Counted from the stretch's first letter, positions 42,224-63,935 are shown. The stretch is DNA of 64,000 bases from Staphylococcus phage vB_StaM_PB50 (OR770614.1); one strand, 5' to 3'. The notes: generated from the letters alone by a model not told the origin. Program-made: numbers and translations.

Positions 42224-42278
42224 TTTATTAGAAAGATATATGATAATATCTTTCTTCATTATTATAATATATACTTAA
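42224..42278 (-). promoter_or_regulatory. early-type promoter motif + leader hairpin
   Basis: Minus strand AAGTATATATTATAATAATGAAGAAAGATA..TATCTTTCT then AATTAATGGAGG RBS. Confidence 0.4.
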
Positions 42279-42281
42279 TCT

Positions 42282-42587
42282 TTATTTTGTTTCAAATTTC
42301 TCAATGCCTTTTTCTTCAATAACTACATCTGCATTTAATACTTGTAAACGTTTACCGTCTACATTAATAACAATGTAACTACCACCTGCTTCATCACTAT
42401 ATTTAGTTCTGATTTTCTTTCCTTCATATTGATGTAATACTTTACCATCTTTACTATATATAGTTACTTTTCTTTCTAGACCTGATGTATCTGATTTATG
42501 ATCTTTAGTAGCATCATCAAACCATGTACAACCTGCTAGTACTGTTGTTAATACTATAACTCCAAATAACATTAATAACTTTTTCAT
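42282..42587 (-). CDS. lipoprotein
   Basis: MKKLLMLFGVIVLTTVLAGC lipobox signal peptide. Confidence 0.5.
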   Translation of the reverse strand: MKKLLMLFGVIVLTTVLAGCTWFDDATKDHKSDTSGLERKVTIYSKDGKVLHQYEGKKIRTKYSDEAGGSYIVINVDGKRLQVLNADVVIEEKGIEKFETK

Positions 42588-42604
42588 AATTTATTTTCTC
42601 CATT

Positions 42605-43090
42605 CTATTCTAAATAGTATATTCCTTCACTAATATCAATTCCATGCTTTTTCAAATCAGAAGATTTAACTAAATTATTTTTACATATTAGTTGTCCATC
42701 AAACCTATTTGTAATAATACCTTTATTATTTACTTTTTTACCAATTGCATGATCTGAAATTCTAATAAATTTAAAATTATTGTTTTTTACATATATCGAT
42801 ATAGATCTTTTATTACTAGAAAAATTAACTATATAACCACTTCTAGCTAATTCATTTGTTAAACTTCCTTTTACATTACCTAATTCTAAAATAACTTCAT
42901 TTGTTTTAGAATTAATAAATTTCTTTCTAATATCTTCCCCTAACATCACATGGTCATTAATCTCTTTCACTATAGGCATTGTATTAAAGTTATTCTTCTG
43001 TGAGTAGTCTAGAAGAAAGAATAATAAATCTTCAATTCCTTCTTCTGTGACTGGAAAGACCTCCTTATTTTTATTCTCCAAATATTTCAT
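42605..43090 (-). CDS. hypothetical protein
   Basis: 161 aa ORF. Confidence 0.35.
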   Translation of the reverse strand: MKYLENKNKEVFPVTEEGIEDLLFFLLDYSQKNNFNTMPIVKEINDHVMLGEDIRKKFINSKTNEVILELGNVKGSLTNELARSGYIVNFSSNKRSISIYVKNNNFKFIRISDHAIGKKVNNKGIITNRFDGQLICKNNLVKSSDLKKHGIDISEGIYYLE

Positions 43091-43116
43091 CCGTTTAATC
43101 TCCTTTAATATATTAT

Positions 43117-43449
43117 TTATACAAAACTATTTAATTCCTTCATATGATAACTTCCTAATTCTAATTTAAGATGAAAGTTCTCTATCATTTTACAATTTAA
43201 ACCATATTCTTCTAATAATTCTACATTAATAGTTTCTTCATTAATTTCCAATATCTCTTTTAATGTAAATATATCTGAAGATACTACTGTTAGAGAATCC
43301 GCTAAATTATCAAGATCTTTTTCTCTAGAATCATCTATATTATAGAAGAAACTTTCTTCCATCAAATGCTTGCAATTAGATATAACAATTAAGTCTCCTA
43401 CAATTTTATCATAAACTCTATCTAAAACTTTTTTACTATCTTTTAACAT
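43117..43449 (-). CDS. hypothetical protein
   Basis: Track ORF 43117-43500; start moved to MLKDSKK (AGGAGTGG RBS) because upstream part is the promoter/hairpin element. Confidence 0.35.
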   Translation of the reverse strand: MLKDSKKVLDRVYDKIVGDLIVISNCKHLMEESFFYNIDDSREKDLDNLADSLTVVSSDIFTLKEILEINEETINVELLEEYGLNCKMIENFHLKLELGSYHMKELNSFV

Positions 43450-43451
43450 TA

Positions 43452-43530
43452 TCCATTCCACTCCTATTATTTTAATTGGTATGAAGTTTATCAACTTCAT
43501 TTATATAATATATACTTATAATTAATTTAA
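43452..43530 (-). promoter_or_regulatory. early-type promoter motif + leader hairpin
   Basis: Minus strand AAGTATATATTATATAAATGAAGTTGATAAACTTCAT then AGGAGTGG RBS. Confidence 0.4.
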
Positions 43531-43992
43531 ATATATATTTTTATTGTAATTATCCTTACCTAATTTATTACTTACATTAATATCAAATATTAAATTTCCA
43601 GTTACAGATTTATCTTTATTATTAATACTTTTTACTAACAACATTGTAATTGAATTATTGTAAGTTAAAGTTTCTATAGTTGTATATATTTTAGTATCTT
43701 TACTTATATCATCCTTTTTAATATTTCTTACTAATTTTAAATCTCCATTGTCTATTATAGTACCTACTTCTGTATCTAATATTTCAATAATACAATTAAC
43801 AAAATCTTCTGCTTTATGAAACAGATCGTGTTTTTCATTAAGAATATAAGTTCTATTTGGTTTAACTTCAGCTTCTTTATTAATTGTATTTAATGATTTA
43901 TATATGAAGTTATTAATATAATTTTGTGTAACTTCAACTGGCAATTTTAAATTATTATTTATTAATTTGTCTATATTCTTTTTATTCTTCAT
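43522..43992 (-). CDS. hypothetical protein
   Basis: 156 aa ORF. Confidence 0.35.
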   Translation of the reverse strand: MKNKKNIDKLINNNLKLPVEVTQNYINNFIYKSLNTINKEAEVKPNRTYILNEKHDLFHKAEDFVNCIIEILDTEVGTIIDNGDLKLVRNIKKDDISKDTKIYTTIETLTYNNSITMLLVKSINNKDKSVTGNLIFDINVSNKLGKDNYNKNIYLN

Positions 43993-44444
43993 TATCTAAA
44001 ATTATCCTTTACTAAATTATTTTTATACTCTTTCTCTGTTATATCTTTTAAATTAAAATCCATTGAATTATGATACCCTTCACTGAGATTATTTTTAATA
44101 ATTAATAGTACTTTGTCTATTATTTTTATTAATCCTTCTTCATCTTCTGGAATAAGTATTGTATCATCATAATGTTGATCATATTCAAATTCATCTTTTA
44201 ATTTACTTAAAATTAAATTATTATCATCTTTAACTATTAAACCATCATCTTCTTCACTATAAAAGAAAAATATAGTACTTTCAGATAAATTTTCGATATC
44301 AAAAGATATTTCACTGTGTAAAGTTAATCCAAAACTATTCACCTTAAATATCTCACTTCTTATTAATTCATCAAAGACTATTTCTTTATTTTTGCCTTGA
44401 AAATAACATTCTTTTCCTCTTAAAATTGTTTTAAAGTATTTCAT
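43992..44444 (-). CDS. hypothetical protein, C-terminal-motif family
   Basis: 150 aa; C-terminus EKEYKNNLVKDNFR. Confidence 0.4.
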   Translation of the reverse strand: MKYFKTILRGKECYFQGKNKEIVFDELIRSEIFKVNSFGLTLHSEISFDIENLSESTIFFFYSEEDDGLIVKDDNNLILSKLKDEFEYDQHYDDTILIPEDEEGLIKIIDKVLLIIKNNLSEGYHNSMDFNLKDITEKEYKNNLVKDNFR

Positions 44445-44460
44445 GTTAAGATCTCCTTAT

Positions 44461-44925
44461 TTAAATTTTATCTAATACATTAGCTAGATATTCATTATGA
44501 TTGAGTTCAATTCTGTTTTCTTCAGGAACTTTATTCTCTATATCATCTATAAAACTATCAAACATATTATCAAGAAGTTCAATGAATTTACTATCTGAAC
44601 CTCTTTCTTTATATCTATTTAGATAAATTTCTTTATCTGAACGTTTAGGATAAGCTACAACAAATTCTAAATTATTATCAATCAACTCTTGGATAACCTC
44701 TTTGTGTGTAGATACAAAAATGTAATCCATCACATTCTTATAATAAAGGTCTTTAATATAACGAATATAATTCTTTGGAAATCTAGGATCTCTAATCTTT
44801 TCCCCATCTTTTACTAACCATGAAAAGCTAGTTGAATCCGAATCAGATGTTTTTAAGAATGTGATATTGTTTTTAATATAAGATTTACCTGTACCTGGAA
44901 ATGCTGCGATTATTTTAGTGTTCAT
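44461..44925 (-). CDS. small P-loop NTPase / nucleotide kinase-like protein
   Basis: N-terminal AAFPGTGKSY Walker A; 154 aa, size typical of (d)NMP kinases. Confidence 0.4.
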   Translation of the reverse strand: MNTKIIAAFPGTGKSYIKNNITFLKTSDSDSTSFSWLVKDGEKIRDPRFPKNYIRYIKDLYYKNVMDYIFVSTHKEVIQELIDNNLEFVVAYPKRSDKEIYLNRYKERGSDSKFIELLDNMFDSFIDDIENKVPEENRIELNHNEYLANVLDKI

Positions 44926-45538
44926 TTTTATTTTCTCCTTTAGTGTTTAAATTGTAGTAATCTTGAAACTCTTCTATTTCTTTAATCATTTCATTTGATT
45001 TTTCTATCTTGAGTTTATTCTCTTTATATCTTAAGAATTCGATATATGTCAAAAGACGATTACTCTCAATATTATTTTTCCAGTGATTTTTATATTTCCT
45101 TTCATGACTTTCTATAACTCCTTTTATAAATGGAGGCATATATAGTCCGTCTAGATTATAAAGTATATTACTATCTTCACTAAGAGTACCGTCATTTTTC
45201 ATAACATCCATTAACTCTTTGAAGTATGGATCTTTACTATTTAATATTATATACCATGCAGAATAATATTTTCCTTTATACTTATATGATTTATTTAAAT
45301 GTTGATACTCTTCCATTATTCTTGAATTAAAATATTTTTTACCTATAATTATAGAAGAAATTATTATTGGAACTAATACAAATAAAGATAGTAATGCTAA
45401 TTTAGAGCTAACTCCTAGTAATGAAAAGAATAATAATACTGATCCAAGCATCATTATCATTTTAATTATAAAAGGTATCATTGCATCATAACCTGTTTTA
45501 TAAAGATACCAGTCAAATATATTTACTTTATTTTTCAT
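44915..45538 (-). CDS. membrane protein
   Basis: 207 aa, two N-terminal TM helices; 11-nt overlap with upstream kinase-like gene. Confidence 0.35.
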   Translation of the reverse strand: MKNKVNIFDWYLYKTGYDAMIPFIIKMIMMLGSVLLFFSLLGVSSKLALLSLFVLVPIIISSIIIGKKYFNSRIMEEYQHLNKSYKYKGKYYSAWYIILNSKDPYFKELMDVMKNDGTLSEDSNILYNLDGLYMPPFIKGVIESHERKYKNHWKNNIESNRLLTYIEFLRYKENKLKIEKSNEMIKEIEEFQDYYNLNTKGENKNEH

Positions 45539-45544
45539 AATTTA

Positions 45545-45739
45545 TCACTTCTCTTTCTTCCTTCTATAAAATGTTCTTCCGTACATATTTTCATAATAAT
45601 CAATAATATCAGTAATACACTGTCTACTAACATTAAATCTTTCAGCAAATTGATCTAATGTTTTCCAATTATTATGAATTATATATTGCATTACTTCTTT
45701 ACGTTCTTTAGGTGTTAATTTATAGTTTCTTCCAGCCAT
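45545..45739 (-). CDS. small HTH DNA-binding protein (sigma region-4-like)
   Basis: 64 aa; TLDQFAERFNVSRQCITDII helix-turn-helix pattern. Confidence 0.35.
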   Translation of the reverse strand: MAGRNYKLTPKERKEVMQYIIHNNWKTLDQFAERFNVSRQCITDIIDYYENMYGRTFYRRKKEK

Positions 45740-45750
45740 AACTATCTCCT

Positions 45751-46248
45751 TTAATAAGCAATATATAATTTCTTAGCTTGTTTATTACTAATATTGTATT
45801 TATCTTGTAATTCTTTAACTTTATCCATAAGTAAATTAGCATACTCCATATCAATATCATGTCCATTTTTATTCATCTTTTTAAAGTATTCAAATTCAAT
45901 AATAGATTTAATAATCTCACATGCTCTTTCATCATCCGATTTTTTAATCATGAAATTATAAATCATTTCTTGAACTACTTCATTTAAAGTATATTCGATA
46001 TTTTTATCATCTACTATAAAAGTCATTTTAATTTTGTAATCAGGATCATAGAAAACCTCTAAATTAGTAAAATGTGCTACACTCATATCAAATAACCATG
46101 ATGATAATAGATTATCTTTTAGATATCTTAAATTTAATAATAAGTCATTTTTAAACATTTTTGTAATCTCCATTTCTAAGTATTTTGTTTTTAGTAATTC
46201 ATTATTAATAATATCTTGATTAATTTCAATATTTTTATTTTTTAACAT
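45751..46248 (-). CDS. hypothetical protein
   Basis: 165 aa ORF. Confidence 0.35.
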   Translation of the reverse strand: MLKNKNIEINQDIINNELLKTKYLEMEITKMFKNDLLLNLRYLKDNLLSSWLFDMSVAHFTNLEVFYDPDYKIKMTFIVDDKNIEYTLNEVVQEMIYNFMIKKSDDERACEIIKSIIEFEYFKKMNKNGHDIDMEYANLLMDKVKELQDKYNISNKQAKKLYIAY

Positions 46249-46270
46249 ATCCGTTTCAGCTCCCTATTTA

Positions 46271-46492
46271 TTATATTGATAAAAATGTTATTGTTAATAT
46301 GACTTCTCCAATTGCAATTATCATAGCTAATAATACCATTGTCATTAATTCTTTTTTCATTCCAATAAAACCTATTATAAAAGCAATTAATAATAAAGAA
46401 AATAAAAATATCGTCTCAAACATATCCAATTCAACTCCTATTAATTTAATTAAAATAATCCCAATGAGAATATTTATCTCATTGGGATTCAT
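46271..46492 (-). CDS. small membrane protein
   Basis: 73 aa, two hydrophobic helices. Confidence 0.3.
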   Translation of the reverse strand: MNPNEINILIGIILIKLIGVELDMFETIFLFSLLLIAFIIGFIGMKKELMTMVLLAMIIAIGEVILTITFLSI

Positions 46493-46494
46493 TA

Positions 46495-47019
46495 TTATAA
46501 TTCTTTGTATTTATTATATAACTCAGATAATTCTTTATCTTCATATTTAGAAATTTTATCTTCAATATCTTTTTCAGATTCTAATTTCTGCATTCTTAAT
46601 TTCATTAACTTTTCTAATTTTTCTTTTTCTTTCTTCTTATCTAGATTTTTAAAATGTTCAAAAATATCTCTACCAATAAAACTTATGATTTCTTTATATT
46701 CATGAACTTCATCTTCTTCGTCAGTTCTATATTCTAAATCATCTAAATCTTTTACATATTCAGATCTAATGAATTCATCTTCCGACATGATAGATTCAAC
46801 TCTAATTGGTTTAATACTAACCGCAAAATCTTCTAATGTTTCAGAAGTGCTGTAATTTGCAGTAGTTACTAAAGCATAATCTCTATCAAAAGATCCAATA
46901 TTTTCTATAAGTTCTGGAGTTACTAATTTTTCTGGTACTTTATAAATATAGTCATTTCCTTTAAATTCTCTATTGCTAGCAAATTTACCAATTAAATAAT
47001 ATTTCATTTTTATTTCCAC
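46495..47019 (-). CDS. hypothetical protein
   Basis: 174 aa ORF; promoter/hairpin element upstream. Confidence 0.4.
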   Translation of the reverse strand: MEIKMKYYLIGKFASNREFKGNDYIYKVPEKLVTPELIENIGSFDRDYALVTTANYSTSETLEDFAVSIKPIRVESIMSEDEFIRSEYVKDLDDLEYRTDEEDEVHEYKEIISFIGRDIFEHFKNLDKKKEKEKLEKLMKLRMQKLESEKDIEDKISKYEDKELSELYNKYKEL

Positions 47020-47032
47020 CTTTTATTTTATT

Positions 47033-47083
47033 TTGAGTAATATTAATTAATATTACTCATTTTTATAATATATATTTAAATTT
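47033..47083 (-). promoter_or_regulatory. early-type promoter motif + leader hairpin
   Basis: Minus strand ATTTAAATATATATTATAAAAATGAGTAATATTAATTAATATTACTC. Confidence 0.4.
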
Positions 47084-47747
47084 GAGATAATAAAAAGTAT
47101 ATAGTTAATAATCCCATTATAATATGAAAATAGAATAATTTTTTATTTATTCTTTCTTCATATACTTTAAATATTATACTGTCTAAATACTTTTCTAAGT
47201 CCTTATTATCTTTAAAGTTTTTTATAAGTTCTTCAAATTTAATTATATTTCCATCTTTATCTTTCATTTCTAAATTACTAAATACATATTTCTTATTTTC
47301 AAAACTTAAATTTCCACCACCTTCTTTTATTAATTCATATTGAAATAATTTATGTTTTATCATAGGTATTAGACTCATTATAATTATAATGAATATACTC
47401 ATATAAATATCATTGGTTATTCCGTAATTTGTGTTTATTATAAATAAAGAATAAAATATTACTGTATATAAAACTACATCATAACTTTTTAAAATTTTTC
47501 TTATAACTATATTTATCATAAGTATTATAAAGAAATAATATACAATATATGACTTAGCTACTTCATGGTTAAATATAAGTGAAACTATTGGAAATACTGA
47601 ACTTGATAATGTTAACACAGTTGGGAAAAATTTCCTATCTAATTTTTCTTTATATGATGTTGTAAGAATTTTAAATAAAGAAAAATAAGTAATATATACC
47701 ATTATTACAGTTAAAATTGTTACTATAATTTCTTCCACTTTATACAC
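47076..47747 (-). CDS. polytopic membrane protein
   Basis: 223 aa with ~5 hydrophobic helices. Confidence 0.4.
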   Translation of the reverse strand: MYKVEEIIVTILTVIMVYITYFSLFKILTTSYKEKLDRKFFPTVLTLSSSVFPIVSLIFNHEVAKSYIVYYFFIILMINIVIRKILKSYDVVLYTVIFYSLFIINTNYGITNDIYMSIFIIIIMSLIPMIKHKLFQYELIKEGGGNLSFENKKYVFSNLEMKDKDGNIIKFEELIKNFKDNKDLEKYLDSIIFKVYEERINKKLFYFHIIMGLLTIYFLLSQI

Positions 47748-47813
47748 TTCTTTCTTATAAAAAAATAATTAATGAAGATCATGGATCTATGAAAAGATCC
47801 ATGATCTAATAAT

Positions 47814-48056
47814 TTAAATACCTTTTGTTATCTTGAGAAATAAGTCTAAATCATCATTGTATTCATCCATAATAACTACTTTAGTTAATTCGCTATGATG
47901 ATTTTTATACACTTCAATTTCATCAAATTCATTTAATTTAATAAATTTAGGTCCTGATGGTACATGTATAATGAAACTGTCATATACGTTAGTTAGTCCT
48001 AAATTTGAAATAAATCTATTAAATATTTCTTCTTTTTTAGTTATTGTTTTAATCAT
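47814..48056 (-). CDS. hypothetical protein
   Basis: 80 aa ORF. Confidence 0.3.
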   Translation of the reverse strand: MIKTITKKEEIFNRFISNLGLTNVYDSFIIHVPSGPKFIKLNEFDEIEVYKNHHSELTKVVIMDEYNDDLDLFLKITKGI

Positions 48057-48084
48057 TTTTTTTTTCTCCTTTATAATTTATATA

Positions 48085-48513
48085 TTATTCTTCAAATAAT
48101 TCTGGATCTGTTTCTGGAGTGATTTCTCTTGAAGTACTTCCTGGTTCACCTGGTGATTTAACTTCACCTTCTGCATCTAACTCTTCTTCACGGCCATTCG
48201 CTGAATATACTGATTCTTCTGTTGTTTCATTTTGTTGAACTTCATTACCAGTGTCTGCATTATTATTTTCTTCTACATTGTTATTTTTAGTTTGTTGATC
48301 ATTTTCATTTGTAGCTTGTTGTTGAGATTCTGTATTTTGATGTTGTTCTTTTTCTTTCTTATTCTCTTTTTCCTTTTTAACTTCTTTTTGCTCAGTTTGT
48401 AATTTTTGTTTTTCTAATTGTAAATCCTTATAACTTGTGTATGCAAATAAAGCTCCTACGAATAATACTGCTACTACCACAATTGCACCTAAACTTATTA
48501 ATAGTTTTTTCAT
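48085..48513 (-). CDS. N-terminally membrane-anchored Q/E/N-rich protein, paralog 3
   Basis: MKKLLISLGAIVVVAVLFVGALFAYTSYKDLQ anchor then low-complexity acidic region. Confidence 0.45.
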   Translation of the reverse strand: MKKLLISLGAIVVVAVLFVGALFAYTSYKDLQLEKQKLQTEQKEVKKEKENKKEKEQHQNTESQQQATNENDQQTKNNNVEENNNADTGNEVQQNETTEESVYSANGREEELDAEGEVKSPGEPGSTSREITPETDPELFEE

Positions 48514-48541
48514 AATAATTTTCCTCTTTTCTAATTTATTT

Positions 48542-49015
48542 TTAGTTTGCCCACTCTTTAATAATATCTGGATTATTGTTTACTTCTTCTCTGATACTAT
48601 CTACATATTCATTACCTCGTTGTGCTTCTACTTTTCCTTCAGTAATAGCTCTGTCGTTTTCATCCATGTAAGTCATATAGTATTCCATTAATTCTTCGTC
48701 ACTCATAGTACCAATATCTGTATTAACTTCATTACTAGTGTCTACATTATTATTTTCTTTTTGACTTGGTGCTTCTTCTTGACTTGGTGCTTCTTCTTGA
48801 ACTGCTTGTTCTTGATCGTTATTTGTTTGTGTGTTACTTACCGTTTCTTGATTTTTATCTTCTTCAGAATCTTTTTGATTATTTTCTTGAGATACTTTAT
48901 TTTGCTCTTCTTGAGTTTCATTTAGATCTTTATATACTGAATAACCAAATAATACTGTTACTCCCAATACTGATAATAATACTAATACACCTAATATACC
49001 TAATAATTTTTTCAT
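48542..49015 (-). CDS. N-terminally membrane-anchored Q/E/N-rich protein, paralog 2
   Basis: MKKLLGILGVLVLLSVLGVTVLFGYSVYKDL anchor; shares N-terminus with neighbours. Confidence 0.45.
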   Translation of the reverse strand: MKKLLGILGVLVLLSVLGVTVLFGYSVYKDLNETQEEQNKVSQENNQKDSEEDKNQETVSNTQTNNDQEQAVQEEAPSQEEAPSQKENNNVDTSNEVNTDIGTMSDEELMEYYMTYMDENDRAITEGKVEAQRGNEYVDSIREEVNNNPDIIKEWAN

Positions 49016-49062
49016 AATAAATTCTCCTTTAATATTTTATTTATTCTATTCAATTATATCAA

Positions 49063-49653: not shown

Positions 49654-49730
49654 AATAATTTCTCCTTTAATTTTAATAGTGAGTTAATCACTCTATAAGC
49701 TATCTACCTTAATAGATAGCCTAACAATGA

Positions 49731-50012
49731 TCAGAATACGTCAACGTCAAAGCCTTCAAAGAATTCAAAGACTTCTTCCTGCTTTCTTCCGTCTGCTCCT
49801 GCCATGTGGAACAGGAGACCGAAGTTGTTCTCCTCATCGTGAAACTGTCTCTCGATGGCTTCAGTTAGGTCAAACACATCTTGAGATAGAGCAAGATCCA
49901 GACCCTCTTTGTCTTTAGCTACCACCTCTAGAACTGTCACTCCATTTATTTGAGGTTGGAATCCTCTTGTTGTTTTAATAATTTTAATTGTATCTGTCAT
50001 TTTGTCGTCCAC
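49731..50012 (-). CDS. small acidic protein encoded in a GC-rich island
   Basis: 93 aa; RBS AAAGGTGG; local GC ~43% versus ~25% surroundings; overlapping plus-strand ORF is Arg-rich antisense artefact. Confidence 0.45.
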   Translation of the reverse strand: MDDKMTDTIKIIKTTRGFQPQINGVTVLEVVAKDKEGLDLALSQDVFDLTEAIERQFHDEENNFGLLFHMAGADGRKQEEVFEFFEGFDVDVF

Positions 50013-50029
50013 CTTTATTTTTAATATGT

Positions 50030-51375: not shown

Positions 51376-51543
51376 TTATTTTAATTTAGCGAACGGATGT
51401 TCAAAAGTTATTTCTGAAGCTCTTTTAAAAACTTGTTTTTCCATTTCTTTTTGCATAGACATTTCTTCAATCTTGTCTAAAACAACTCCCATCACAATTC
51501 CTAATCCAAATCCTGCTAATAATTTCAATAATAATTTTGTCAT
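51376..51543 (-). CDS. small single-TM peptide, cassette copy A
   Basis: Start at MTKLLLKLLAGFGLGIVMGV (GGAGG RBS); ...QKEMEKQVFKRASEITFEHPFAKLK; paralog of 52716-52883. Confidence 0.45.
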   Translation of the reverse strand: MTKLLLKLLAGFGLGIVMGVVLDKIEEMSMQKEMEKQVFKRASEITFEHPFAKLK

Positions 51544-51565: not shown

Positions 51566-51622
51566 ATGAAGAAAGAGTTAATGATAATCTCTTTCTTCAT
51601 AATTATAATATATGCTTATTTT
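51566..51622 (-). promoter_or_regulatory. early-type promoter motif + leader hairpin
   Basis: Minus strand TAAGCATATATTATAATTATGAAGAAAGAG..CTCTTTCTTCAT then AATTAATGGAGG. Confidence 0.4.
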
Positions 51623-52715: not shown

Positions 52716-52883
52716 CTATCCTAAATTAGAAAACGGATGTTCAAACGTTATTTCTGAAGCTCTTTTAAGAACTTGTTTTTCCATTTCCTTTTGCATAATT
52801 AATTCGTCAATCTTATTGTTAATTACTCCTAATACGATTCCTACACCAAATCCTACCAACGTTTTCAATACTAAGTTTTTCAT
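52716..52883 (-). CDS. small single-TM peptide, cassette copy B
   Basis: Start at MKNLVLKTLVGFGVGIVLGV (GGAGG RBS); ...QKEMEKQVLKRASEITFEHPFSNLG. Confidence 0.45.
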   Translation of the reverse strand: MKNLVLKTLVGFGVGIVLGVINNKIDELIMQKEMEKQVLKRASEITFEHPFSNLG

Positions 52884-52905: not shown

Positions 52906-52962
52906 ATTAGAAAGATAATTAATATTTTATCTTTCTTCATTATTATAATATATACTTATTTT
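52906..52962 (-). promoter_or_regulatory. early-type promoter motif + leader hairpin
   Basis: Minus strand AAGTATATATTATAATAATGAAGAAAGATAA..TTATCTTTCT then AATTAATGGAGG. Confidence 0.4.
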
Positions 52963-53617: not shown

Positions 53618-53655
53618 TTATTTTTGGATCATAGAAAATTACATACCTAGAAAGC
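53618..53655 (-). promoter_or_regulatory. palindrome + TTTTCTATGATCCAAAAA motif, copy 4
   Basis: Minus strand CTAGCTTTCTAG then GTATGTAATTTTCTATGATCCAAAAATAAAAAATATAGAGGTG upstream of ATG 53606. Confidence 0.4.
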
Positions 53656-53881
53656 TAGATATAACATGTACTCGTATTTCAACTATTGATTTTACTATTG
53701 ATGTTAACGTTACAAGTGATATCGCTAATATAAGTTTTGTCCTTAAGCTTAATTTTCTTTTAAATATATAATTCTCTAAATAAGTAGATAAATATTTAGA
53801 AATTTCAAAAGACCCAAAAGCTATCGCTACTGGTATTAACGTATAATATAATAAAGCAATTATTATATCTAATATAAACAT
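53639..53881 (-). CDS. small membrane protein
   Basis: 80 aa, two hydrophobic helices, RBS GGAGATG. Confidence 0.35.
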   Translation of the reverse strand: MFILDIIIALLYYTLIPVAIAFGSFEISKYLSTYLENYIFKRKLSLRTKLILAISLVTLTSIVKSIVEIRVHVISSFLGM

Positions 53882-53904: not shown

Positions 53905-53962
53905 TTAAGATATATCATTATATATTATATATCTTCATTATTATAATATATATTTAAATAAA
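53905..53962 (-). promoter_or_regulatory. early-type promoter motif + leader hairpin
   Basis: Minus strand TTTAAATATATATTATAATAATGAAGATATAT..ATATATCTT then AAAAAGGAG RBS. Confidence 0.4.
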
Positions 53963-53971
53963 TGATAATTA

Positions 53972-54020
53972 CGAAAAAAAAAATATTAGAGGTAATGATC
54001 AAATTAATGATCATTACCTC
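53972..54020 (-). terminator. rho-independent terminator (copy 2 of 48-nt unit, inverted)
   Basis: Reverse complement is 48/48 identical to 19619-19666 including the T10 tract. Confidence 0.6.
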
Positions 54021-55918: not shown

Positions 55919-55924
55919 TTTAAT

Positions 55925-55988
55925 AATTTAATATAGGTAATGAGCGTTATAATATTTGCTCATTACCTATTTATAATATATATTTATT
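55925..55988 (-). promoter_or_regulatory. early-type promoter motif + leader hairpin
   Basis: Minus strand AAATATATATTATAAATAGGTAATGAGC..GCTCATTACCT. Confidence 0.35.
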
Positions 55989-55990
55989 TC

Positions 55991-57052: not shown

Positions 57053-57066
57053 TTCTTTCTTTTATA

Positions 57067-57729
57067 TTATAATAAATTAATAATTTTTCGAGCAACTTTA
57101 TCAAAGATAGATTCTTGTTTTCCTGCTTTTTTAATATCTACATTATCACGATATTCTCTACCTGTTTCAGGATCTTTTTGAACATTTTGCATCTTATCTT
57201 TAATTTCTTTAGCTTTTTCTTCTGTTTTATTTTTAAGTCCTTCTGTAGCTTCTTTTGTTTTCTCTACTGTAGGTGATTCAACTACAGTTTCTACAGCTAA
57301 TTCTACTTTACTTGGTTTAACTTCATCTCCACGTAAAATTTTCTTGTATTCGTTAAATGTAGGATATCCTTCTTTAGCAAATCTATAATCTTCAGTTAAA
57401 TGTCCAAAATATTCAGCTCTACGAATATGAGTAATAGTGTGAGTTTTTCTTTCAATTCCATATTTCTCTTTAAATTCTTTTAAAATGTAAGTATTACCAT
57501 GTCCTTTATCGATTAAACCAGCAATAAAGTGAACTTGCTCTTTAGTTAATTTTGGTGTACCTTTAGTAGTTGTTTGTTTTTTAGTCATTTTTAAATCATC
57601 CTTTTTATTATTATTTTTTGGCAAATCTATAATTTTTTCGTTAATTGAGTTTTCTAATTTAATTTCTTTTTCTAACTTTTTCTTTTCTAACTTTTTTCTT
57701 TGTCGTTTATTCATGGTCAATGTCTCCAA
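57067..57729 (-). CDS. putative DNA-binding protein
   Basis: 220 aa, lysine-rich; LTKEQVHFIAGLIDKGHGNTYILKEF helix-turn-helix-like segment. Confidence 0.3.
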   Translation of the reverse strand: METLTMNKRQRKKLEKKKLEKEIKLENSINEKIIDLPKNNNKKDDLKMTKKQTTTKGTPKLTKEQVHFIAGLIDKGHGNTYILKEFKEKYGIERKTHTITHIRRAEYFGHLTEDYRFAKEGYPTFNEYKKILRGDEVKPSKVELAVETVVESPTVEKTKEATEGLKNKTEEKAKEIKDKMQNVQKDPETGREYRDNVDIKKAGKQESIFDKVARKIINLL

Positions 57730-57748
57730 TTATATTTATTTAATTTTC

Positions 57749-57943
57749 TTATCTATTTTTCTGACACTGTTTAGCTAATTCCCTCATCACCTTTGTTCTC
57801 TTTGCCCCTTTCTTTGCTACTGCTCTATTTCTCTTGTAATTTCTCACCATTTGATTTAGAATTTCTCTCATCTTTATCTTCTCCTTTATATAATAATAAG
57901 AATAACGATCTAATAAGACCGTTATTCTAAAAAATCTATTCAC
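57749..57943 (-). CDS. small basic protein
   Basis: 64 aa, K/R-rich; 8-nt overlap with RNAP beta-prime exon 2. Confidence 0.3.
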   Translation of the reverse strand: MNRFFRITVLLDRYSYYYIKEKIKMREILNQMVRNYKRNRAVAKKGAKRTKVMRELAKQCQKNR

Positions 57944-58133
57944 TAGCTTTAATATCTACATTTTTTGATTTAGGATTATTTAATAAATAAACAGCTATTT
58001 GTGAGTCTTTATTAAGTGAGTAAGTTCTATTAAACAATCCATCATTATATGAAATTAATTGGTTTACTGGATCTTGTACTTTTAATTGTTCGTATTGTTC
58101 TTCTGAAAATAGTGCTATGATATTTAAAGTATC
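57936..58133 (-). CDS. RNA polymerase beta-prime-like N-terminal fragment, exon 2
   Basis: DTLNIIALFSEEQYEQLKVQDPVNQLISYNDG aligns with beta-prime [33 protein letters not shown] directly after NADFDGD; begins right after intron terminal G at 58134. Confidence 0.55.
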   Translation of the reverse strand, partial: DTLNIIALFSEEQYEQLKVQDPVNQLISYNDGLFNRTYSLNKDSQIAVYLLNNPKSKNVDIKASE

Positions 58134-59861
58134 CATTTATCTTAACCTACATTTAATATATAGGATGAGACTATATCTTATGGTTTCCCATTTATATATT
58201 TAGTCGTTGAACCTTATAATTAGGATGCTGATTAGTTTCAAACTGTCCCAGCAATTAATATGATTTATTGAAGGCAATAAATCAATAAATTTTATAATTC
58301 ATTAAAATATTTCCGCTATTCCAAATTCGATAAACACCCGATTGTTTTTTAGGAAAATCTGAGTATTCCATGTTTTCATTAATGTAATTTGGAAAGTATT
58401 CTGGTATAATAGATTTTTCAAATTCATGAACTGAATAAATATTTCTTTTAAAAATTATTTTACATGTAGATTTTAATTCTTTAACATAATTAAAACCAAA
58501 ATCTTTGAAATATTTACCATCAGAATAATCTTTATTTATTATTAAATCTATTGTTTTTATATTGTTTCTTTTGAAATATTTAATTGAATTACTTAATAAT
58601 TTAAATAAACCACCATTTACAATTGTTTTATTACTAAAAGCAAATTTTTCTAATTTAACTTTATTCTTATTTATATAATTATATGACATAATTGCAATTA
58701 TTTCATCATTAATTTTTAATGAAAAATTAATATCATGAGAGGAATTTATATAGGTACTATTATTTTTATAGAAGTTTTTAGCGTCATAATCGTTAATTAT
58801 TTCAAAATTACATTCTCTAGCATTTATTTTCTTTTCTTGAAAATAATCTATAGAATACAATATCCTATTAATTATTAAATCTTTTTTAAACTCGTAATCT
58901 AATGAGTTAATAAAATATATTTCAATATCAAAATTATTTTTAAAAAAATCTTTCTTATGTTTATGATATTCTTTATTTTTCATTTTATCTGAATGATAAT
59001 AGTATCCATTAAATTCAAATCCTATTTTTTTATCTGGAAAGAATAGATCTACTTCATATATTTGATCATTAAAAGAGAATCTTTTGTTATTTAAAATAAT
59101 TCCTTTATATGATTCTTTTATATATTTTATTAATTCAATTTCTTGATTAGATTTAATATTTTTACAAAGAGGACATCTATATCCTTGTTGAAAGTCATTA
59201 ACTCTTACACTATAAATATTACCACATTTTTTATGTTTTATTGGATATTTTTCTTTATTATTGAATTTATAATTTAAATCCAACCATTCATATTCATTAC
59301 CATCTTTAGATTCAGATAATATTTTTATTAAATAATTTTCATCATCTTTATAATAATATTTACCTCTTTTTTTATTTGAACAAAAAGGACATCTTCTTTT
59401 CTTATTTCCCAAAAATAAGCGTGGTTCTACTTTATATTCATTTCCGCATATTTCATGTCTTAATAAAACTTTATCGCTACCATTTTTATTAAAACCTTCT
59501 ATATAAGTATAATCTTTATTTTCTTTTTTAATTTCTTCAAAAAAGTCTTTATCCGATATATTTTTATAATTTCTAGCTTTTTTATTCCCTTCATTTTTAA
59601 AACATTTCGGACATCTTCCTTTTCCTTCATTTAAGAAAATATTACCTTTAGATACTCTATATTCTTCACCACAAATTTTATGTTTTAAAATAAAAGGCTT
59701 TGAAGTTCCCTCATAATTGCTTATTAATTCATAATTATTATTATCTATATTTTTTATTTTGTTTATTACATCTTCTTCTGTTAATTTAGGTGGCATAAAC
59801 TCATCCTTTCAATTAATTATTAAGGAGGTTTATTTAAATTTATTTTTTATTGATAATTTTT
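58134..59861 (-). mobile_element. group I intron with homing endonuclease gene, inserted in beta-prime catalytic motif
   Basis: 5' splice after ...GADYDG (U at 59862); ORF 59796-58282; then P AATTGCTGGGAC, Q AATCAGCATCC, R GTTCAACGACTAAAT, S AAGATATAGTCTC and terminal G. Confidence 0.6.
58282..59796 (-). CDS. intron-encoded endonuclease (Zn-ribbon repeats + DUF559/Vsr-like domain + C-terminal extension)
   Basis: 504 aa; repeated C..C/H..C..C modules as in terL intron ORF; YEVDLFFPDKKIGFEFNGYYYHS nuclease-like segment. Confidence 0.5.
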   Translation of the reverse strand: MPPKLTEEDVINKIKNIDNNNYELISNYEGTSKPFILKHKICGEEYRVSKGNIFLNEGKGRCPKCFKNEGNKKARNYKNISDKDFFEEIKKENKDYTYIEGFNKNGSDKVLLRHEICGNEYKVEPRLFLGNKKRRCPFCSNKKRGKYYYKDDENYLIKILSESKDGNEYEWLDLNYKFNNKEKYPIKHKKCGNIYSVRVNDFQQGYRCPLCKNIKSNQEIELIKYIKESYKGIILNNKRFSFNDQIYEVDLFFPDKKIGFEFNGYYYHSDKMKNKEYHKHKKDFFKNNFDIEIYFINSLDYEFKKDLIINRILYSIDYFQEKKINARECNFEIINDYDAKNFYKNNSTYINSSHDINFSLKINDEIIAIMSYNYINKNKVKLEKFAFSNKTIVNGGLFKLLSNSIKYFKRNNIKTIDLIINKDYSDGKYFKDFGFNYVKELKSTCKIIFKRNIYSVHEFEKSIIPEYFPNYINENMEYSDFPKKQSGVYRIWNSGNILMNYKIY

Positions 59862-60974
59862 ACCATCATAGTCTGCACCCATACCAGCAAGTATATTATT
59901 ACTGATACCTACTACTGATGATTCTATATCTTGAATTATATCTTTAATTTTTAATATTTGAACTGAGCTTTCACTAATACTGGGATTTCTATTTAAAATA
60001 ACTCTCATTCCATTTTCAGTTTTATCAACTAGTTCTCTCATATATTTATATACTTTAGGATTAAATGTATCTAATGCTCTGTCTAATATTTCTTCACCTT
60101 TAGCTAAAGGAATATTTTCTGTTACATACATTAAATTTGCTAAGATAGGTTTATATACTTCTAAGAAGATGGTATAATTTAATCTAATTTCATTTAATTT
60201 AAGGTCAGGTGCTGGAACAATTACTGAACGTGCAGAGAAACCAACACGACTACCCATTAGTAATTTACGAATAGTTCCACCTTTACCTTTAATATTCTCA
60301 TTAATTACACGATCACTAATATTAATACTATCATCTTGAATTTTACTTAATAGATTTAATTTTTGTAACTCTACTGAATCATCTGTATAATGTCTATCAA
60401 GTTCTTTAATACTATTACTATGAGCAATTAATAAATTATAATCTTTATTAATTTCAGAATGTCTAAAAGTTTTAGTAGCTTTATTAACTGTAGCAGGTCT
60501 TAATTTAGGACTAAATACAGTTACATAATTTTGGAATAGTAAATCAGATAAATACCATTGTACTACTCTATTGTAATCTTTAGTTTTACGTTTTTCACGT
60601 TTAACTTCTTCTTTAAGAATTTTTAAGAAATTCTTTCTAAATTCAATTAAACCAATATAAGAGTTATGATCATCTTCAGGTTCAATTACATTACCATTTT
60701 CATCAATAGGTTTTTCAGAACTAATAATTTCTTGGAATCTTTTATTACCAATTAATTTTTTAACACGTTCATAACCTAACGGATTTAAAATATAATTATT
60801 ACCTAAATCTACAATAGCTTCATTAGTAATATTATCTGCTTCTGAATCAGGACCGAAGATTTTCTCACTGAAGATACCATCTTCAGTGAAATCACCTTTC
60901 TTATCAATTGATTCATGATTAGTTACAACTGGAACATTTTCTAAATCCTTTTTCTTGAGTAAAAATCTAACCAT
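59862..60974 (-). CDS. RNA polymerase beta-prime-like N-terminal fragment, exon 1
   Basis: GKGGTIRKLLMGSRVGFSARSVIVPAPDLKLNEIRL matches beta-prime [24 protein letters not shown]; ends ...NILAGMGADYDG (NADFDGD). Confidence 0.65.
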
Positions 60975-60977
60975 AAC

Positions 60978-62600
60978 TTAATCTTCTCCTTCTTCTACAA
61001 TTTCTTTAATGTCCATAATAACTTCCTGATCATCATTTTCTTTCTCTAATTTATCAATATTTTCAATATCTTCAATTTCTTTGATATTAGGTTTATTTTC
61101 AAAATAGAATGAACCATTCTCACCAGGATCTTTAACTTCACAGAATGGAGTTAACGTACGAGTAATACCTGGATTATTTGATGAAGTAGCAATCAAATCA
61201 ATTCTACCGAAATAAGTGTTATTGATATTGATTGTTCTAATAGATGGTTTACTAGTGTCTACAGCTGATTGTGGACCTGCTTTAGTCATTTTAAGAATTC
61301 TAGTAAATAAATCAATTGTATTAACTGCATTAGAATAACGTATACCATCAGAAGTTCCAATAGTTTTCAATAGATAATCTCTAGGTACTCCTGAGAATAA
61401 ACCTTTAAGGTTTTTAATAGTACGTTTTTTATCTGAGAAGTTAATCATACGGTAAGATGTATCAGAATTTTTTCTATTCAGTGGATAAGTTAAGTATTCT
61501 AATACTCTTAATCGTTTATTAGCTAAATCTGTATTATCTAATAAGTTAAGATTATCAAAGTTCTTAAACATGTATTTAACCACATGATAAGTTGATTCTT
61601 TATCTTCTTTTTCTAATCGTGATATAGCTTGAGTACGACTATCTAATATACGATCAAATGAAAGTATCATTGAATTCGCTTTATCTATTTTAGTGTCAAT
61701 ATTAGTTGAACCACTGAAGATAGAACCTAAAGCCTTTAACCAGAATTCTCTATCGTATATTTTATCTAATCCAGCTCTCATTCCTTTGAATAAATCTTTA
61801 ATACAAAGGATCATAGAATTTCTATAACGATCATCAACATCTAACCATTCTTTTTCAACTTTTAAAGAAAGTTTATTATTAATTTTAAAGTAATAGTAAT
61901 TATCTTCTTTATCATCATTAATATCTATTACTTCACAATGGTCTTTAATTTCTAAAAATTCAAATGTTTCGTCAAATCCCATTTTTGCAACAAAGAACAT
62001 AAATGCTGGAACACTCTTATTTTTATTGAACACTTCTAGATATAGAGTTCTCCCTCTTTGGAAATTAGACATCTTATTATCGTCATCCATAATAGTGTCT
62101 TTTTTAGAACCATTGACTGATAGTGGTTGCAATAAGTTTTTCATTACTACAGTACTAGCTTTTGGTTTATAAAATTCAGCATCAGCTAATTGTAGAATTG
62201 GGAAAAATTTGTTATTATTGATATAGTAGTATTGACCTTCAATAAGTTCAGGGAAATCTAATTTGTGTGTATATTCTTCTTTATTACCTTCTGAATCTTC
62301 AAATTCTACTGTAATTTGAACTTCCAGTAATTTAGATTCTTCAACATTGATTTTTCTATAATCTTTAGATTTAAGTTGTTTATCTGTCATTTGATTATAT
62401 TCATAAACCTGACTTGGTGAAACAACTTTACAATCTAAGAATTTAATTCCTTTAATAAATTCTACTGATCGATAAATATCTGAAATGATTTTTTCTAAAC
62501 TTTCATTTTGTCTGAAATAAATTACGTCTTCGTTAAATGGTTCTTTTTTGCTAATGTCTTCGTTGATGTTCTTTGTAACTTTACTTAAGTATTTACTCAA
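60978..62600 (-). CDS. RNA polymerase beta-like N-terminal fragment
   Basis: 540 aa; KAGPQSAV...YFGRIDLIATSSNNPGITRTL parallels beta SALGPGGL...HYGRVCPIETPEGPNIGLI; GQYYYINNNKFFPILQL resembles GxFIINGxERVxxSQL. Confidence 0.55.
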   Translation of the reverse strand: MSKYLSKVTKNINEDISKKEPFNEDVIYFRQNESLEKIISDIYRSVEFIKGIKFLDCKVVSPSQVYEYNQMTDKQLKSKDYRKINVEESKLLEVQITVEFEDSEGNKEEYTHKLDFPELIEGQYYYINNNKFFPILQLADAEFYKPKASTVVMKNLLQPLSVNGSKKDTIMDDDNKMSNFQRGRTLYLEVFNKNKSVPAFMFFVAKMGFDETFEFLEIKDHCEVIDINDDKEDNYYYFKINNKLSLKVEKEWLDVDDRYRNSMILCIKDLFKGMRAGLDKIYDREFWLKALGSIFSGSTNIDTKIDKANSMILSFDRILDSRTQAISRLEKEDKESTYHVVKYMFKNFDNLNLLDNTDLANKRLRVLEYLTYPLNRKNSDTSYRMINFSDKKRTIKNLKGLFSGVPRDYLLKTIGTSDGIRYSNAVNTIDLFTRILKMTKAGPQSAVDTSKPSIRTININNTYFGRIDLIATSSNNPGITRTLTPFCEVKDPGENGSFYFENKPNIKEIEDIENIDKLEKENDDQEVIMDIKEIVEEGED

Positions 62601-62689
62601 TTATCCGACACTCTCCCTCTTGGTAATAAAAAACTTTATAAGTTATGAGTTATTTCTGTTTTTTATTTTTTTATAAAATGAAAACTCAT

Positions 62690-62701
62690 AACAATATTAT
62701 A
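62690..62701 (+). promoter_or_regulatory. AACA-N6-TA motif
   Basis: AACAATATTATA ~80 nt upstream of HU-like gene start. Confidence 0.3.
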
Positions 62702-62783
62702 TCATAAAACTTAGAAAAAAGCTAGGAAAATAATTAAATTTTTCTAAATTTTTTAAAAATAAATGAAAGAAAGGAAACTAAAA

Positions 62784-63095
62784 ATGAATAGACAAATTCA
62801 AGATCAAAAACATTTCTTCCGTGAATGGTCTAAACGAACTGGTTTATCTCAAAGAGAATTAGTAGATGCTTATTCAGAAATGATTGATATTTTAGTTGAA
62901 TCAGCTAATGATTCAGATCAAACTAAAACTATTATTCCTGAAATCGGTGTTTTAGAAGTTAAACCTGAAGATATGCGTAAACGTAGAAATCCAAGAACTA
63001 ATCAAATTGTAGTTACTGAACCTACACGTAAAGCACACATTCGTTTATACCCTAGACTTAAAAATAGATTTAAACCGGATGAATTAGAGAAATAA
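62784..63095 (+). CDS. HU/IHF-family DNA-binding protein
   Basis: Start at MNRQIQ (AAAGGAAA RBS); IGVLEVKPEDMRKRRNPRTNQIVVTEPTRKAHI matches HU beta-arm R-NP-T pattern. Confidence 0.55.
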   Translation: MNRQIQDQKHFFREWSKRTGLSQRELVDAYSEMIDILVESANDSDQTKTIIPEIGVLEVKPEDMRKRRNPRTNQIVVTEPTRKAHIRLYPRLKNRFKPDELEK

Positions 63096-63145
63096 AAATA
63101 ATTTAAAAGCCATAATATACTTATTTGTATATTATGGCAATTTTA

Positions 63146-63424
63146 TTATTCATTCTCATTAATGTCTTCTTTAGTTTCTTTTCTTTTAATAGTTAAATTA
63201 AGTACTTTTCTGAAGAATTTAATTTTAAGATTTAATAAGAAATTATTATCTGATTTAATCTTAACATCAAACTTCTGTTCTTTATCTTCTTCAGTTTCAG
63301 GTAAAGTAACAAATTCAAAGTCTACTCTTTCTAAGTCTTTTCTAGATAATAATTCTTTCTTTTGTTTTTCATTAAGTTTTAACCCTAATCTTTTTTCTAA
63401 TTTCTTTTGTTTTCTTTTATTCAT
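63146..63424 (-). CDS. hypothetical basic protein
   Basis: 92 aa Lys-rich ORF. Confidence 0.3.
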   Translation of the reverse strand: MNKRKQKKLEKRLGLKLNEKQKKELLSRKDLERVDFEFVTLPETEEDKEQKFDVKIKSDNNFLLNLKIKFFRKVLNLTIKRKETKEDINENE

Positions 63425-63454
63425 ATTTAATAAGTCATCTCCATATTATAATTA

Positions 63455-63838
63455 TTAATCTTTATAGTCTGGTTTAGCTGGAATCCACATTTTAGGATTG
63501 TAATTAATTTCATACTGATATTTGCTAACATTCTTAGTTGTTACATCTTCGACAGTATATGAAACATTATCAGATAAACCAATGATGTGTTTTTGGTATT
63601 TACCATCTTCATTTTCTACAACTATTTCTAACTGGTTATCTTCTTTATCCGCTTTAATAGACATGCGTCCAGACATCTGAAAAATAATATCGTTCTTAAT
63701 AGCATTTATGACAGTTACTTTTCTAACCACATTAAAATTATCTGACTCTTCAGACATATTTTGACTAACCTTATCTGCTTGAGAGCACCCTGCTAATAAT
63801 AAAACTAATAATAATGGTAATACTAAAAATTTCTTCAT
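63455..63838 (-). CDS. lipoprotein
   Basis: MKKFLVLPLLLVLLLAGCSQ lipobox signal peptide. Confidence 0.5.
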   Translation of the reverse strand: MKKFLVLPLLLVLLLAGCSQADKVSQNMSEESDNFNVVRKVTVINAIKNDIIFQMSGRMSIKADKEDNQLEIVVENEDGKYQKHIIGLSDNVSYTVEDVTTKNVSKYQYEINYNPKMWIPAKPDYKD

Positions 63839-63869
63839 GATTGTTTTCTCCTTTGATTGGTTTTAATAT

Positions 63870-63935
63870 ATTAGAGGTAATGATAAATAATATATCATTA
63901 CCTCATTTTTATAATATATATTTAAATAATATCTT
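63870..63935 (-). promoter_or_regulatory. early-type promoter motif + leader hairpin
   Basis: Minus strand ATTTAAATATATATTATAAAAATGAGGTAATGATATATTATTTATCATTACCTC. Confidence 0.4.

Follow-up and report, generated by a model that had tools for sequence, protein, structure and literature searches.

AR9-type early promoters with a predicted 5'-terminal stem-loop in a Staphylococcus jumbo phage: a possible stabiliser of early mRNAs

Introduction

Here we analyse a 64,000-nucleotide stretch of the genome of Staphylococcus phage vB_StaM_PB50 (OR770614.1), hereafter the window, in which a short intergenic unit recurs ahead of genes: an AT-rich motif resembling an early promoter, followed at once by an inverted repeat and then by a ribosome-binding site (RBS). 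The window is very AT-rich (18-30% G+C), and between positions 42000 and 56000 it shares 97% identity with phage Machias and 78-91% with phages AH12, PALS_2, MarsHill, Madawaska, DC4, S6 and LY01. An open reading frame (ORF) on the minus strand at 60978-62600 is 99.6% identical to the beta subunit of the Machias non-virion RNA polymerase (nvRNAP) and 33-35% identical to the corresponding proteins of Listeria phage LPJP1 and Bacillus phages AR9 and PBS1; the nvRNAP beta and beta' genes both lie inside the window. Subunits of the other polymerase, the virion RNA polymerase (vRNAP), have been reported for the Staphylococcus jumbo-phage clade (bioRxiv 10.1101/2020.12.14.422802). Given the identity to Machias and the nvRNAP beta matches, we therefore place the window among the AR9-related, uracil-DNA Staphylococcus jumbo phages, very close to Machias.

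Results

An earlier sequence-only reading of the window had described a family of early-type promoters, present in at least 11 copies, whose A/T block ends in ATGA(A/G)G and runs directly into a stable leader hairpin. Using a position-weight matrix (PWM) trained on the independent genome of phage S6, with a threshold of 14 bits, we find nine sites of the form TTAARTATATATTAT-N6-G in the window, where 0.15 would be expected from shuffled sequences; eight lie on the minus strand and the ninth at 18751-18770 on the plus strand. These nine sites match the 13-nt consensus AAATATATATTAT with 0-2 mismatches and score 18.8-32.4 bits. The core TATATATTAT occurs 13 times, compared with 4.65 +/- 1.84 times in shuffles, and these matches include all ten sites that had been listed; a pattern search for the motif with a 3-nt gap gave no enrichment, while the version with a 4-nt gap was enriched. 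The sites read (T)TAA(A/G)TATATATTAT-(6N)-G, and by this sequence criterion a G lies exactly 6 nt past the motif at 9 of the 10, the spacing at 21004-21023 being 7 nt. All PWM-matched sites are intergenic and have the same orientation as the next gene. The motif is thus real, while the count was too high, with ten sites listed and nine of them strong. The ending ATGA(A/G)G likewise holds at 7 of the 10 sites and fails at 47058 (ATGAGT), 55966 (TAGGTA) and 18770 (ATGTAA).

The sequence-only reading had also proposed a comparison with the early promoters of AR9 and PBS1, and this was right: the motif equals the mapped AR9 early promoter. The AR9 consensus, AAATATATATTAT-(6N)-G+1, was derived from 41 early start sites by differential RNA sequencing (dRNA-seq) and primer extension, and early use of these promoters proved independent of chloramphenicol; as they need no newly made protein, it is the injected virion polymerase that reads them (PMC5312081). 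Within the Staphylococcus clade, a MEME motif, TATATTAT, was predicted 5' of 29 MarsHill genes in the description of the MarsHill, Madawaska and Machias genomes by Korn et al. (bioRxiv 10.1101/2020.12.14.422802), and RNA sequencing of the clade member SA1 identified 97 early genes (PMC9414953). We assign the window motif to the AR9-type early promoters of the virion RNA polymerase, with which it agrees in every defining feature that could be tested at the sequence level. The promoter half of the unit is therefore already known, from the AR9 mapping and the MarsHill prediction. Transferring the AR9 spacing to the window sites, we infer as the first transcribed nucleotide the G that stands 6 nt past TATATATTAT, namely the G of ATGARG.

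What follows this predicted start? Each of the eight minus-strand sites is followed, within the predicted transcript, by an inverted repeat whose stem measures 6-12 bp. The 5' arm of the repeat starts at +1 in five cases, at +2 in one and at +3 in two, and the stems end around +16 to +31. The minimum free energies (MFE) of the eight leaders range from -5.9 to -16.6 kcal/mol, and fold z-scores against shuffles lie between -2.3 and -6.9 for seven of them, the leader at 43498 reaching only -1.2. A stem of at least 8 bp starting within 3 nt is found at 7 of the 10 listed sites, compared with 2.6% of all G positions in the window (binomial p about 1e-9). The Shine-Dalgarno (SD) sequence begins 11-21 nt past the stem and is unpaired in both the predicted MFE and centroid structures. 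The description from the sequence-only reading, a perfect 8-13 bp hairpin at the GAAG or GAGG with a strong RBS and a gene start just downstream, is in substance confirmed: the hairpins are real and far above chance, and the placement of RBS and gene start holds, though the stems measure 6-12 bp and the two plus-strand sites are unconvincing. A search of the whole window against Rfam at gathering thresholds returned no match.

The eight minus-strand units can be described in order of position. The promoter at 42257-42276 has AAGTATATATTAT at 42276-42264, the spacer AATAAT and a predicted +1 at G 42257 (28.5 bits); its hairpin at 42230-42255, a 10-bp stem with a 6-nt loop, starts at +3 (-10.3 kcal/mol, z -2.9), and is followed by the SD sequence GGAGG at +41 and by an ORF running from an ATG at 42204 to 41905. 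The promoter at 43498-43517 (AAGTATATATTAT, spacer ATAAAT, predicted +1 G 43498, 28.7 bits) carries the weakest of the minus-strand hairpins, with a 6-bp stem and a 4-nt loop at 43483-43498 that starts at +1 (-6.7 kcal/mol, z -1.2), and its gene starts at 43449. At 47058-47077 we find AAATATATATTAT with the spacer AAAAAT and a predicted +1 at G 47058 (29.6 bits), followed from +1 by the 10-bp stem GAGTAATATT/AATATTACTC at 47035-47058 (-9.7 kcal/mol, z -6.3) and by an ATG at 47007.

Next come two units whose genes are related. The promoter at 51598-51617 (AAGCATATATTAT, spacer AATTAT, predicted +1 G 51598, 23.2 bits) leads from +1 into the 10-bp stem GAAGAAAGAG/CTCTTTCTTC at 51568-51598 (-14.1 kcal/mol, z -4.1) and to a 55-aa membrane-like ORF with its ATG at 51543, while the promoter at 52938-52957 (AAGTATATATTAT, spacer AATAAT, predicted +1 G 52938, 26.8 bits) leads to a 10-bp hairpin at 52909-52936, starting at +3 (-9.4 kcal/mol, z -3.0), and to a 55-aa paralogue of that ORF with its ATG at 52883. 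The promoter at 53936-53955 (AAATATATATTAT, spacer AATAAT, predicted +1 G 53936, 29.9 bits) is followed by a 9-bp hairpin at 53907-53935, starting at +2 (-5.9 kcal/mol, z -2.3), and an ATG at 53881. At 55966-55985 (AAATATATATTAT, spacer AAATAG, 18.8 bits) the predicted +1 is G 55966 or possibly G 55967, and the stem GTAATGAGC/GCTCATTAC at 55937-55966, which starts at +1 (-11.1 kcal/mol, z -5.6), has 9 bp, or 10 if G 55967 is transcribed; the gene starts at about 55906/55900. The best site of all is the promoter at 63904-63923 (AAATATATATTAT, spacer AAAAAT, predicted +1 G 63904, 32.4 bits), which has the 12-bp stem GAGGTAATGATA/TATCATTACCTC at 63874-63904 from +1 (-16.6 kcal/mol, z -6.9), with a compensatory change in its orthologues, and a lipoprotein-like ORF starting with an ATG at 63838.

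The plus-strand sites are of a different quality. The promoter unit at 18751-18789 has AAATATATATTAT at 18751-18763, a predicted +1 at G 18770 (27.6 bits) and an ATG at 18816, with a marginal 7-bp hairpin at 18770-18789 (-4.3 kcal/mol, z -0.74). A second TATATATTAT lies at 18787-18796, so that two motifs stand 33 nt apart; the 3' arm of the weak hairpin overlaps this second motif, whose +1 would be an A rather than a G, and 18751-18810 may be a tandem or decayed duplicate promoter. The tenth listed site, 21004-21030, is a doubtful variant: it has TATATATTAT with a 7-nt spacer at 21004-21023, scores below 14 bits and thus below the PWM threshold, and has no hairpin (MFE 0), its GAAGGAG being the SD sequence of an ORF starting at 21040. 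Just 3' of it, at 21504-29849 (+), lies a single 2781-aa ORF whose MarsHill counterpart is annotated as a putative tail fibre. At hairpin-less sites (21023 in the window; 231213 and 133608 in S6) the +1 GAAGG itself is the RBS.

Several further observations concern the units as such. Small hydrophobic proteins are the first genes at several promoters (51376-51543, 52716-52883, 53639-53881 and 63455-63838, all on the minus strand), one product having the lipoprotein-like signal MKKFLVLPLLLVLLLAGC. The 55-aa paralogues (MTKLLLKLLAGFGLGIVMGVV.. and MKNLVLKTLVGFGVGIVLGV..) each have their own GAAGAAAGA-type hairpin, and promoter-hairpin-gene cassettes seem to have been duplicated as units. The 5' arms of the hairpins are polypurine and SD-like (AGAAAGA, GAGGT) and the 3' arms resemble the 3' end of 16S rRNA (CTTTCT, ACCTC), for instance at 42230-42255 and 63874-63904; this likeness may be a coincidence arising from the purine-rich start.

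How general is the hairpin among relatives of the phage? We assembled the whole S6 genome from its public record and scanned it for ATATATTAT-N6-G, with the same scan applied to AR9. Of 31 such sites in S6, 26 (84%) have a stem of at least 6 bp beginning at +1 to +4, and 23 have one of at least 8 bp, with a median MFE for +1 to +40 of -9.6 kcal/mol. In AR9, where the start sites are experimentally known, the corresponding numbers are 5/32 and 1/32 and the median MFE is -1.6 kcal/mol (Mann-Whitney p = 2.7e-8 for S6 versus AR9). In the closest outgroup, Listeria phage LPJP1, a 99-kb sample yielded hairpins at about 2 of 11 sites, and in a 50-kb sample of Bacillus phage BpSp 0 of 6 canonical sites had one. 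From start to SD the leaders of S6 span a median of 43 nt and those of AR9 a median of 21 nt. Because S6 leaders are longer than those of AR9 and because stems are rare in AR9, BpSp and LPJP1, we regard the hairpin as an inserted module typical of the Staphylococcus clade, occupying some 25-30 nt between start site and SD. We also scanned public viral contigs for AAATATATATTAT-N6-G; the matches were mostly single chance hits in AT-rich contigs, and only one contig was informative, the 265-kb uncultured AR9-like metagenomic contig IMGVR_UViG_3300043093_000048 (23% G+C). It carries the same promoter motif at five sites within 1038-11028, three or four of which have a +1 stem of 6-9 bp. Since this contig is nearer to AR9 than to S6 (its ligase is 40% and its UvsX-like protein 60% identical to those of AR9), the distribution of the hairpin may be patchy rather than strictly confined to one clade.

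This distribution bears on the possibility that the hairpin acts on transcription, by aiding promoter clearance or preventing backtracking of the virion polymerase, or by imposing a pause before the RBS that couples translation to transcription. Such a role would fit the strict anchoring of the hairpin to the predicted +1 and the fairly even spacing between hairpin and SD (11-21 nt in the window, median 14 nt in the clade), and the clade restriction could mirror a property of the clade's polymerase. However, AR9 has a homologous polymerase that works from the same promoter without hairpins, about 16% of the S6 sites and some orthologues keep the promoter without one, and stem and loop lengths vary widely, unlike those of pause hairpins. 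We consider a transcriptional role unlikely.

Orthologous promoters were found by anchoring on the downstream coding sequence in Machias, AH12, MarsHill, PALS_2, S6 and LY01. Across these six relatives the hairpin is kept at 8 of 10 loci despite differing stem sequences. The locus at 42257 has the alleles AGAAAGATAT/ATATCTTTCT and GAAGATAA/TTATCTTC, that at 47058 has GAGTAATATTAA and GAGATTAATAAT, and that at 55966 has GGTAATGAGC and GAGGTAATGGATA, while at 63904 GAT/ATC is replaced by GAC/GTC. The hairpin at 43498 is shared by the window, Machias and AH12 only; the MarsHill, S6, PALS_2 and LY01 orthologues lack it. We also compared paralogous hairpins. A first MAFFT alignment had the 3' arms out of register, and we counted instead a narrower, nine-member alignment of the GAG..AATG stem family, in which 4 of 12 pairs show changes on both sides and 95% of cells are paired; its covariation score was reached by 0 of 500 shuffles, which is supportive rather than independent proof since the members were partly picked for being hairpins. 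Among 57 unique stems, the non-Watson-Crick combinations comprise 16 G·T and 4 A·C (binomial p = 0.012), an asymmetry of 20 events that are not fully independent phylogenetically. Sense folding is 1.6 kcal/mol more stable than antisense folding, a difference on which we do not rely since loops and dangling ends differ between the strands anyway. The conservation pattern suggests that selection acts on pairing rather than on sequence, and probably on the sense RNA.

The same data speak to a role of the inverted repeat in DNA, as a cruciform or single-strand hairpin in promoter recognition of the kind used by the N4 virion polymerase. The repeat directly adjoins a virion-polymerase promoter, and some of the DNA palindromes reach 1-4 bp upstream of the predicted +1, although a one-by-one check in S6 suggests that this extension, as it appears in the pooled histogram, is mostly chance pairing of T(-1) with the A-rich tail, together with repeated orthologues. 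Against such a role, the AR9, BpSp and LPJP1 promoters lack the repeat, AT-rich stems with loops of 3-14 nt would form cruciforms poorly, and the repeat lies downstream of the start rather than upstream as in N4. Moreover, G·T is tolerated and A·C is not, which indicates selection on one strand; because G·U is tolerated only in the transcribed sense, an RNA structure is favoured over a DNA cruciform. We regard a DNA-level role as very improbable.

Alternatively, the hairpin could be a binding site for a phage or host protein, serving the temporal shut-off or activation of early mRNAs, or marking them to escape phage-induced decay of host mRNA. The hairpin is clade-specific and genome-wide, its 5' arm is partly conserved (the GAG..AATG and GAAGAAAGA families), and transcription units also end in hairpins of these families. 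Yet the 26 S6 hairpins are highly diverse in both stem and loop, with only the initial G-A-R conserved; pairing alone is conserved, and no candidate protein was identified. A binding site of this kind thus seems improbable to us.

The sequence-only reading had further held that the hairpin, having no U-tract, looks like a leader structure rather than a terminator, and both parts of that reading are supported. None of the eight minus-strand leaders has a U-tract. Past the leader stems the tails are 61% A, and TTTT occurs within 4 nt of the stem in 1 of 62 unique clade hairpins; a terminator scan calls none of the eight leader hairpins. The stems begin at +1 to +3, between the promoter and the SD of the next gene and not at the 3' end of a transcription unit, and no other recognisable promoter was found for the genes downstream of them. 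True terminators occur elsewhere on the minus strand. One at 53989-54020, a 13-bp stem GAGGTAATGATC... followed by TAATATTTTTTTTT (a run of nine T), ends the preceding unit directly 5' of the promoter at 53936; another, at 41867-41896, ends the one-gene unit that starts from the promoter at 42257; and a third, at 46457-46489, lies 3' of the gene following the promoter at 47058. The last two are annotated as terminators in Machias. A separate comparison of T counts in the tails of promoter-linked and other hairpins was dropped in favour of this direct tail analysis, since its controls took the best strand and it missed stems starting at +3.

Could the leader hairpin nevertheless terminate or attenuate, blocking upstream read-through or ending some transcripts prematurely to give short 5' RNAs? 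Canonical terminators use the same stem families, most of the promoters have no separate upstream terminator, and short RNAs derived from 5' untranslated regions by premature termination have been reported in the jumbo phage 201phi2-1 (PMC11512511). The U-tract, besides, is a criterion for canonical intrinsic terminators and may not be a requirement of these phage polymerases. On the other side stand the A-rich tails, with a U-tract at only one of the 62 hairpins, and the promoter at 53936, which keeps its own hairpin (53955-53907) even though the full terminator at 54020-53989 lies immediately upstream. Efficient termination would also silence the downstream genes, which have no other promoter, and a terminator has no need of a stem that starts exactly at +1. 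We think termination or attenuation an improbable explanation. An RNase III processing site was rejected as well, as stems of 6-14 bp are too short and RNase III requires roughly 20 bp.

The stem families GAGGTAATGA.. and ATCCCAAT.. are common to leader hairpins and canonical terminators, which suggests common descent or shared constraints for the two kinds of stem. The window carries two copies of the 32-nt terminator hairpin GAGGTAATGATCATTAATTTGATCATTACCTC with TAATATTTTTTTTT after it, one on each strand, at 19619-19650 (+) and 53989-54020 (-); 918-949 is a further position of note here. The stem family of this hairpin (GAGGTAATGA.., GAGTAATGATG..) also supplies +1 leader hairpins, at 55966 and 63904 and, around 44704, in AH12, so that transcription units can both begin and end with hairpins of one sequence family.

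Two other regions of the window may be described briefly. Upstream of the nvRNAP beta gene (62620-62710, minus strand) the canonical early promoter is absent, and there is instead a one-mismatch variant, GATATAATAT-TGTTAT-GAG, which can also be read as a host-type extended -10 element (TGATATAAT); 3' of it lies a weak GAGTT...AACTC repeat with a long loop. At 17600-18100 divergent gene blocks are separated by an extremely AT-rich intergenic stretch, in which several TATATTAT-like repeats and a perfect palindrome of 17 bp (17664-17703) are found. Here, and once more near 37-38 kb, the cumulative GC skew changes direction, tracking switches in gene orientation.

Discussion

Our analysis suggests, on balance, that the units described here are AR9-type vRNAP early promoters whose transcripts begin with a 5'-terminal stem-loop that stabilises early mRNAs, and that the stem-loop is not a terminator; we rank roles in transcription, attenuation, protein binding and DNA recognition lower than mRNA protection. 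How would such protection work? The multisubunit RNA polymerase injected with the virion would read these sites and start at the G 6 nt after TATATATTAT, so that the nascent early mRNA would carry a stem-loop at its very 5' end, with at most 2 unpaired nucleotides ahead of it, while the ribosome-binding site 11-21 nt further on would stay single-stranded. The stem would then protect the message from decay that depends on the 5' end, namely RppH-type removal of pyrophosphate followed by the 5'-exonuclease activity of RNase J1/J2, and would also counter RNase Y, which 5'-monophosphate stimulates. The mRNAs protected in this way would be small in amount, coming from few injected polymerase molecules. 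Staphylococcus aureus has the same RNase J/Y-type machinery. In Bacillus subtilis a 5'-terminal or nearly terminal hairpin lends stability to long stretches of downstream mRNA, and 5' hairpins impede RppH and the 5'-end-dependent RNases, which need single-stranded 5' termini (reviewed in PMC3997798). We favour the stabilising role because 5' stabilisers classically have just this form, a stem 0-2 nt from a triphosphorylated 5' end. In read-through transcripts the hairpin might in addition be a roadblock to 5'-exonucleolytic decay arriving from upstream, which is possible because most of the promoters lie inside long co-directional gene arrays without an upstream terminator.

Several points weigh against this proposal. 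AR9, BpSp and LPJP1 lack the hairpin although their Bacillus and Listeria hosts share the RNase J1/RppH machinery, and because these hairpin-less relatives face similar RNases, host decay alone does not explain the restriction to one clade. Some of the stems are AU-rich and of modest stability, -4 to -7 kcal/mol. The +1 position is carried over from the AR9 mapping, the Staphylococcus phages being known here by sequence. To these we add the upstream reach of some palindromes and the small number of wobble events, both described above, and the stem families shared with canonical terminators, which may reflect a terminator-derived origin or a shared binding factor. As for the relatives without hairpins, the short leaders of AR9, BpSp and LPJP1, with a strong SD near the 5' end, may be protected by ribosome binding instead, a known alternative means of 5' protection in Bacillus (PMC3997798).

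A more speculative possibility, to which we give little weight, is that the hairpin is a systematic 5' "cap" of the Staphylococcus jumbo clade, and perhaps of uncultured AR9-like phages: either a self-mark by which early mRNAs survive a 5'-end-dependent destruction of mRNA unleashed by the phage, or a structure required by the clade's virion polymerase. If this were true, the promoter unit would include the hairpin as an integral and obligatory component, which would then be more than a stabiliser of single genes.

That an AR9-type promoter is coupled to a hairpin at the very start of its transcript seems to be a new observation. The AR9 (PMC5312081), MarsHill, DC4 and 201phi2-1 (PMC11512511) papers say nothing of a hairpin following these promoters, and a full-text search of the papers covered turned up no mention of one. 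The novelty lies in this coupling, which about 85% of the sites in one clade show and which the Bacillus and Listeria relatives almost entirely lack; the promoter itself adds nothing new. If the proposed stabilisation is right, these phages offer a simple example of how a phage that arrives with a polymerase of its own also shapes the 5' ends of the first mRNAs it makes. The early start sites of all Staphylococcus jumbo phages would then be predicted to the nucleotide, and the units could provide compact promoter-plus-stabiliser cassettes for expression in Staphylococcus. The question raised is why close relatives in hosts with the same RNases manage without the hairpin.

It is instructive to set these units beside systems that are already known. 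The promoters of the N4 virion polymerase have a DNA hairpin of conserved sequence upstream of the start and are read by a single-subunit polymerase. The units described here share with them an injected polymerase, early promoters and an inverted repeat, but the repeat is transcribed, variable in sequence and absent from relatives with the same promoter, so that the defining features of the N4 type are missing. The intrinsic terminators of the same phage resemble the leader hairpins in stem length and in some of their families; they differ in having a T-run and standing after genes, whereas the leader hairpins have A-rich tails and stand between promoter and RBS. Closer in form are the 5' stabilisers of Escherichia coli ompA and papA and of B. 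subtilis aprE and ermC (PMC3997798), which likewise place a stable hairpin within a few nucleotides of the 5' end and leave a free RBS downstream. Those cases are single genes, whereas here the arrangement, known from sequence alone, is genome-wide and belongs to one promoter class in one clade. The motif predicted in MarsHill is the same motif in the same clade, and the text of that paper (bioRxiv 10.1101/2020.12.14.422802) treats the motif only, never mentioning a hairpin, stem-loop or terminator. Closest of all are the early promoters of AR9 and PBS1 (Lavysh et al. 2017, PMC5312081), with which the window sites share the 13-nt AT-rich consensus, the 6-nt spacer, the G start and the position 5' of early genes, in a uracil-DNA jumbo phage with two multisubunit polymerases. 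The difference lies in what follows the start: AR9 leaders are short and unstructured, with the SD at about +21, while those of the window and S6 begin with a +1 stem-loop at 84-90% of sites and have the SD at about +43.

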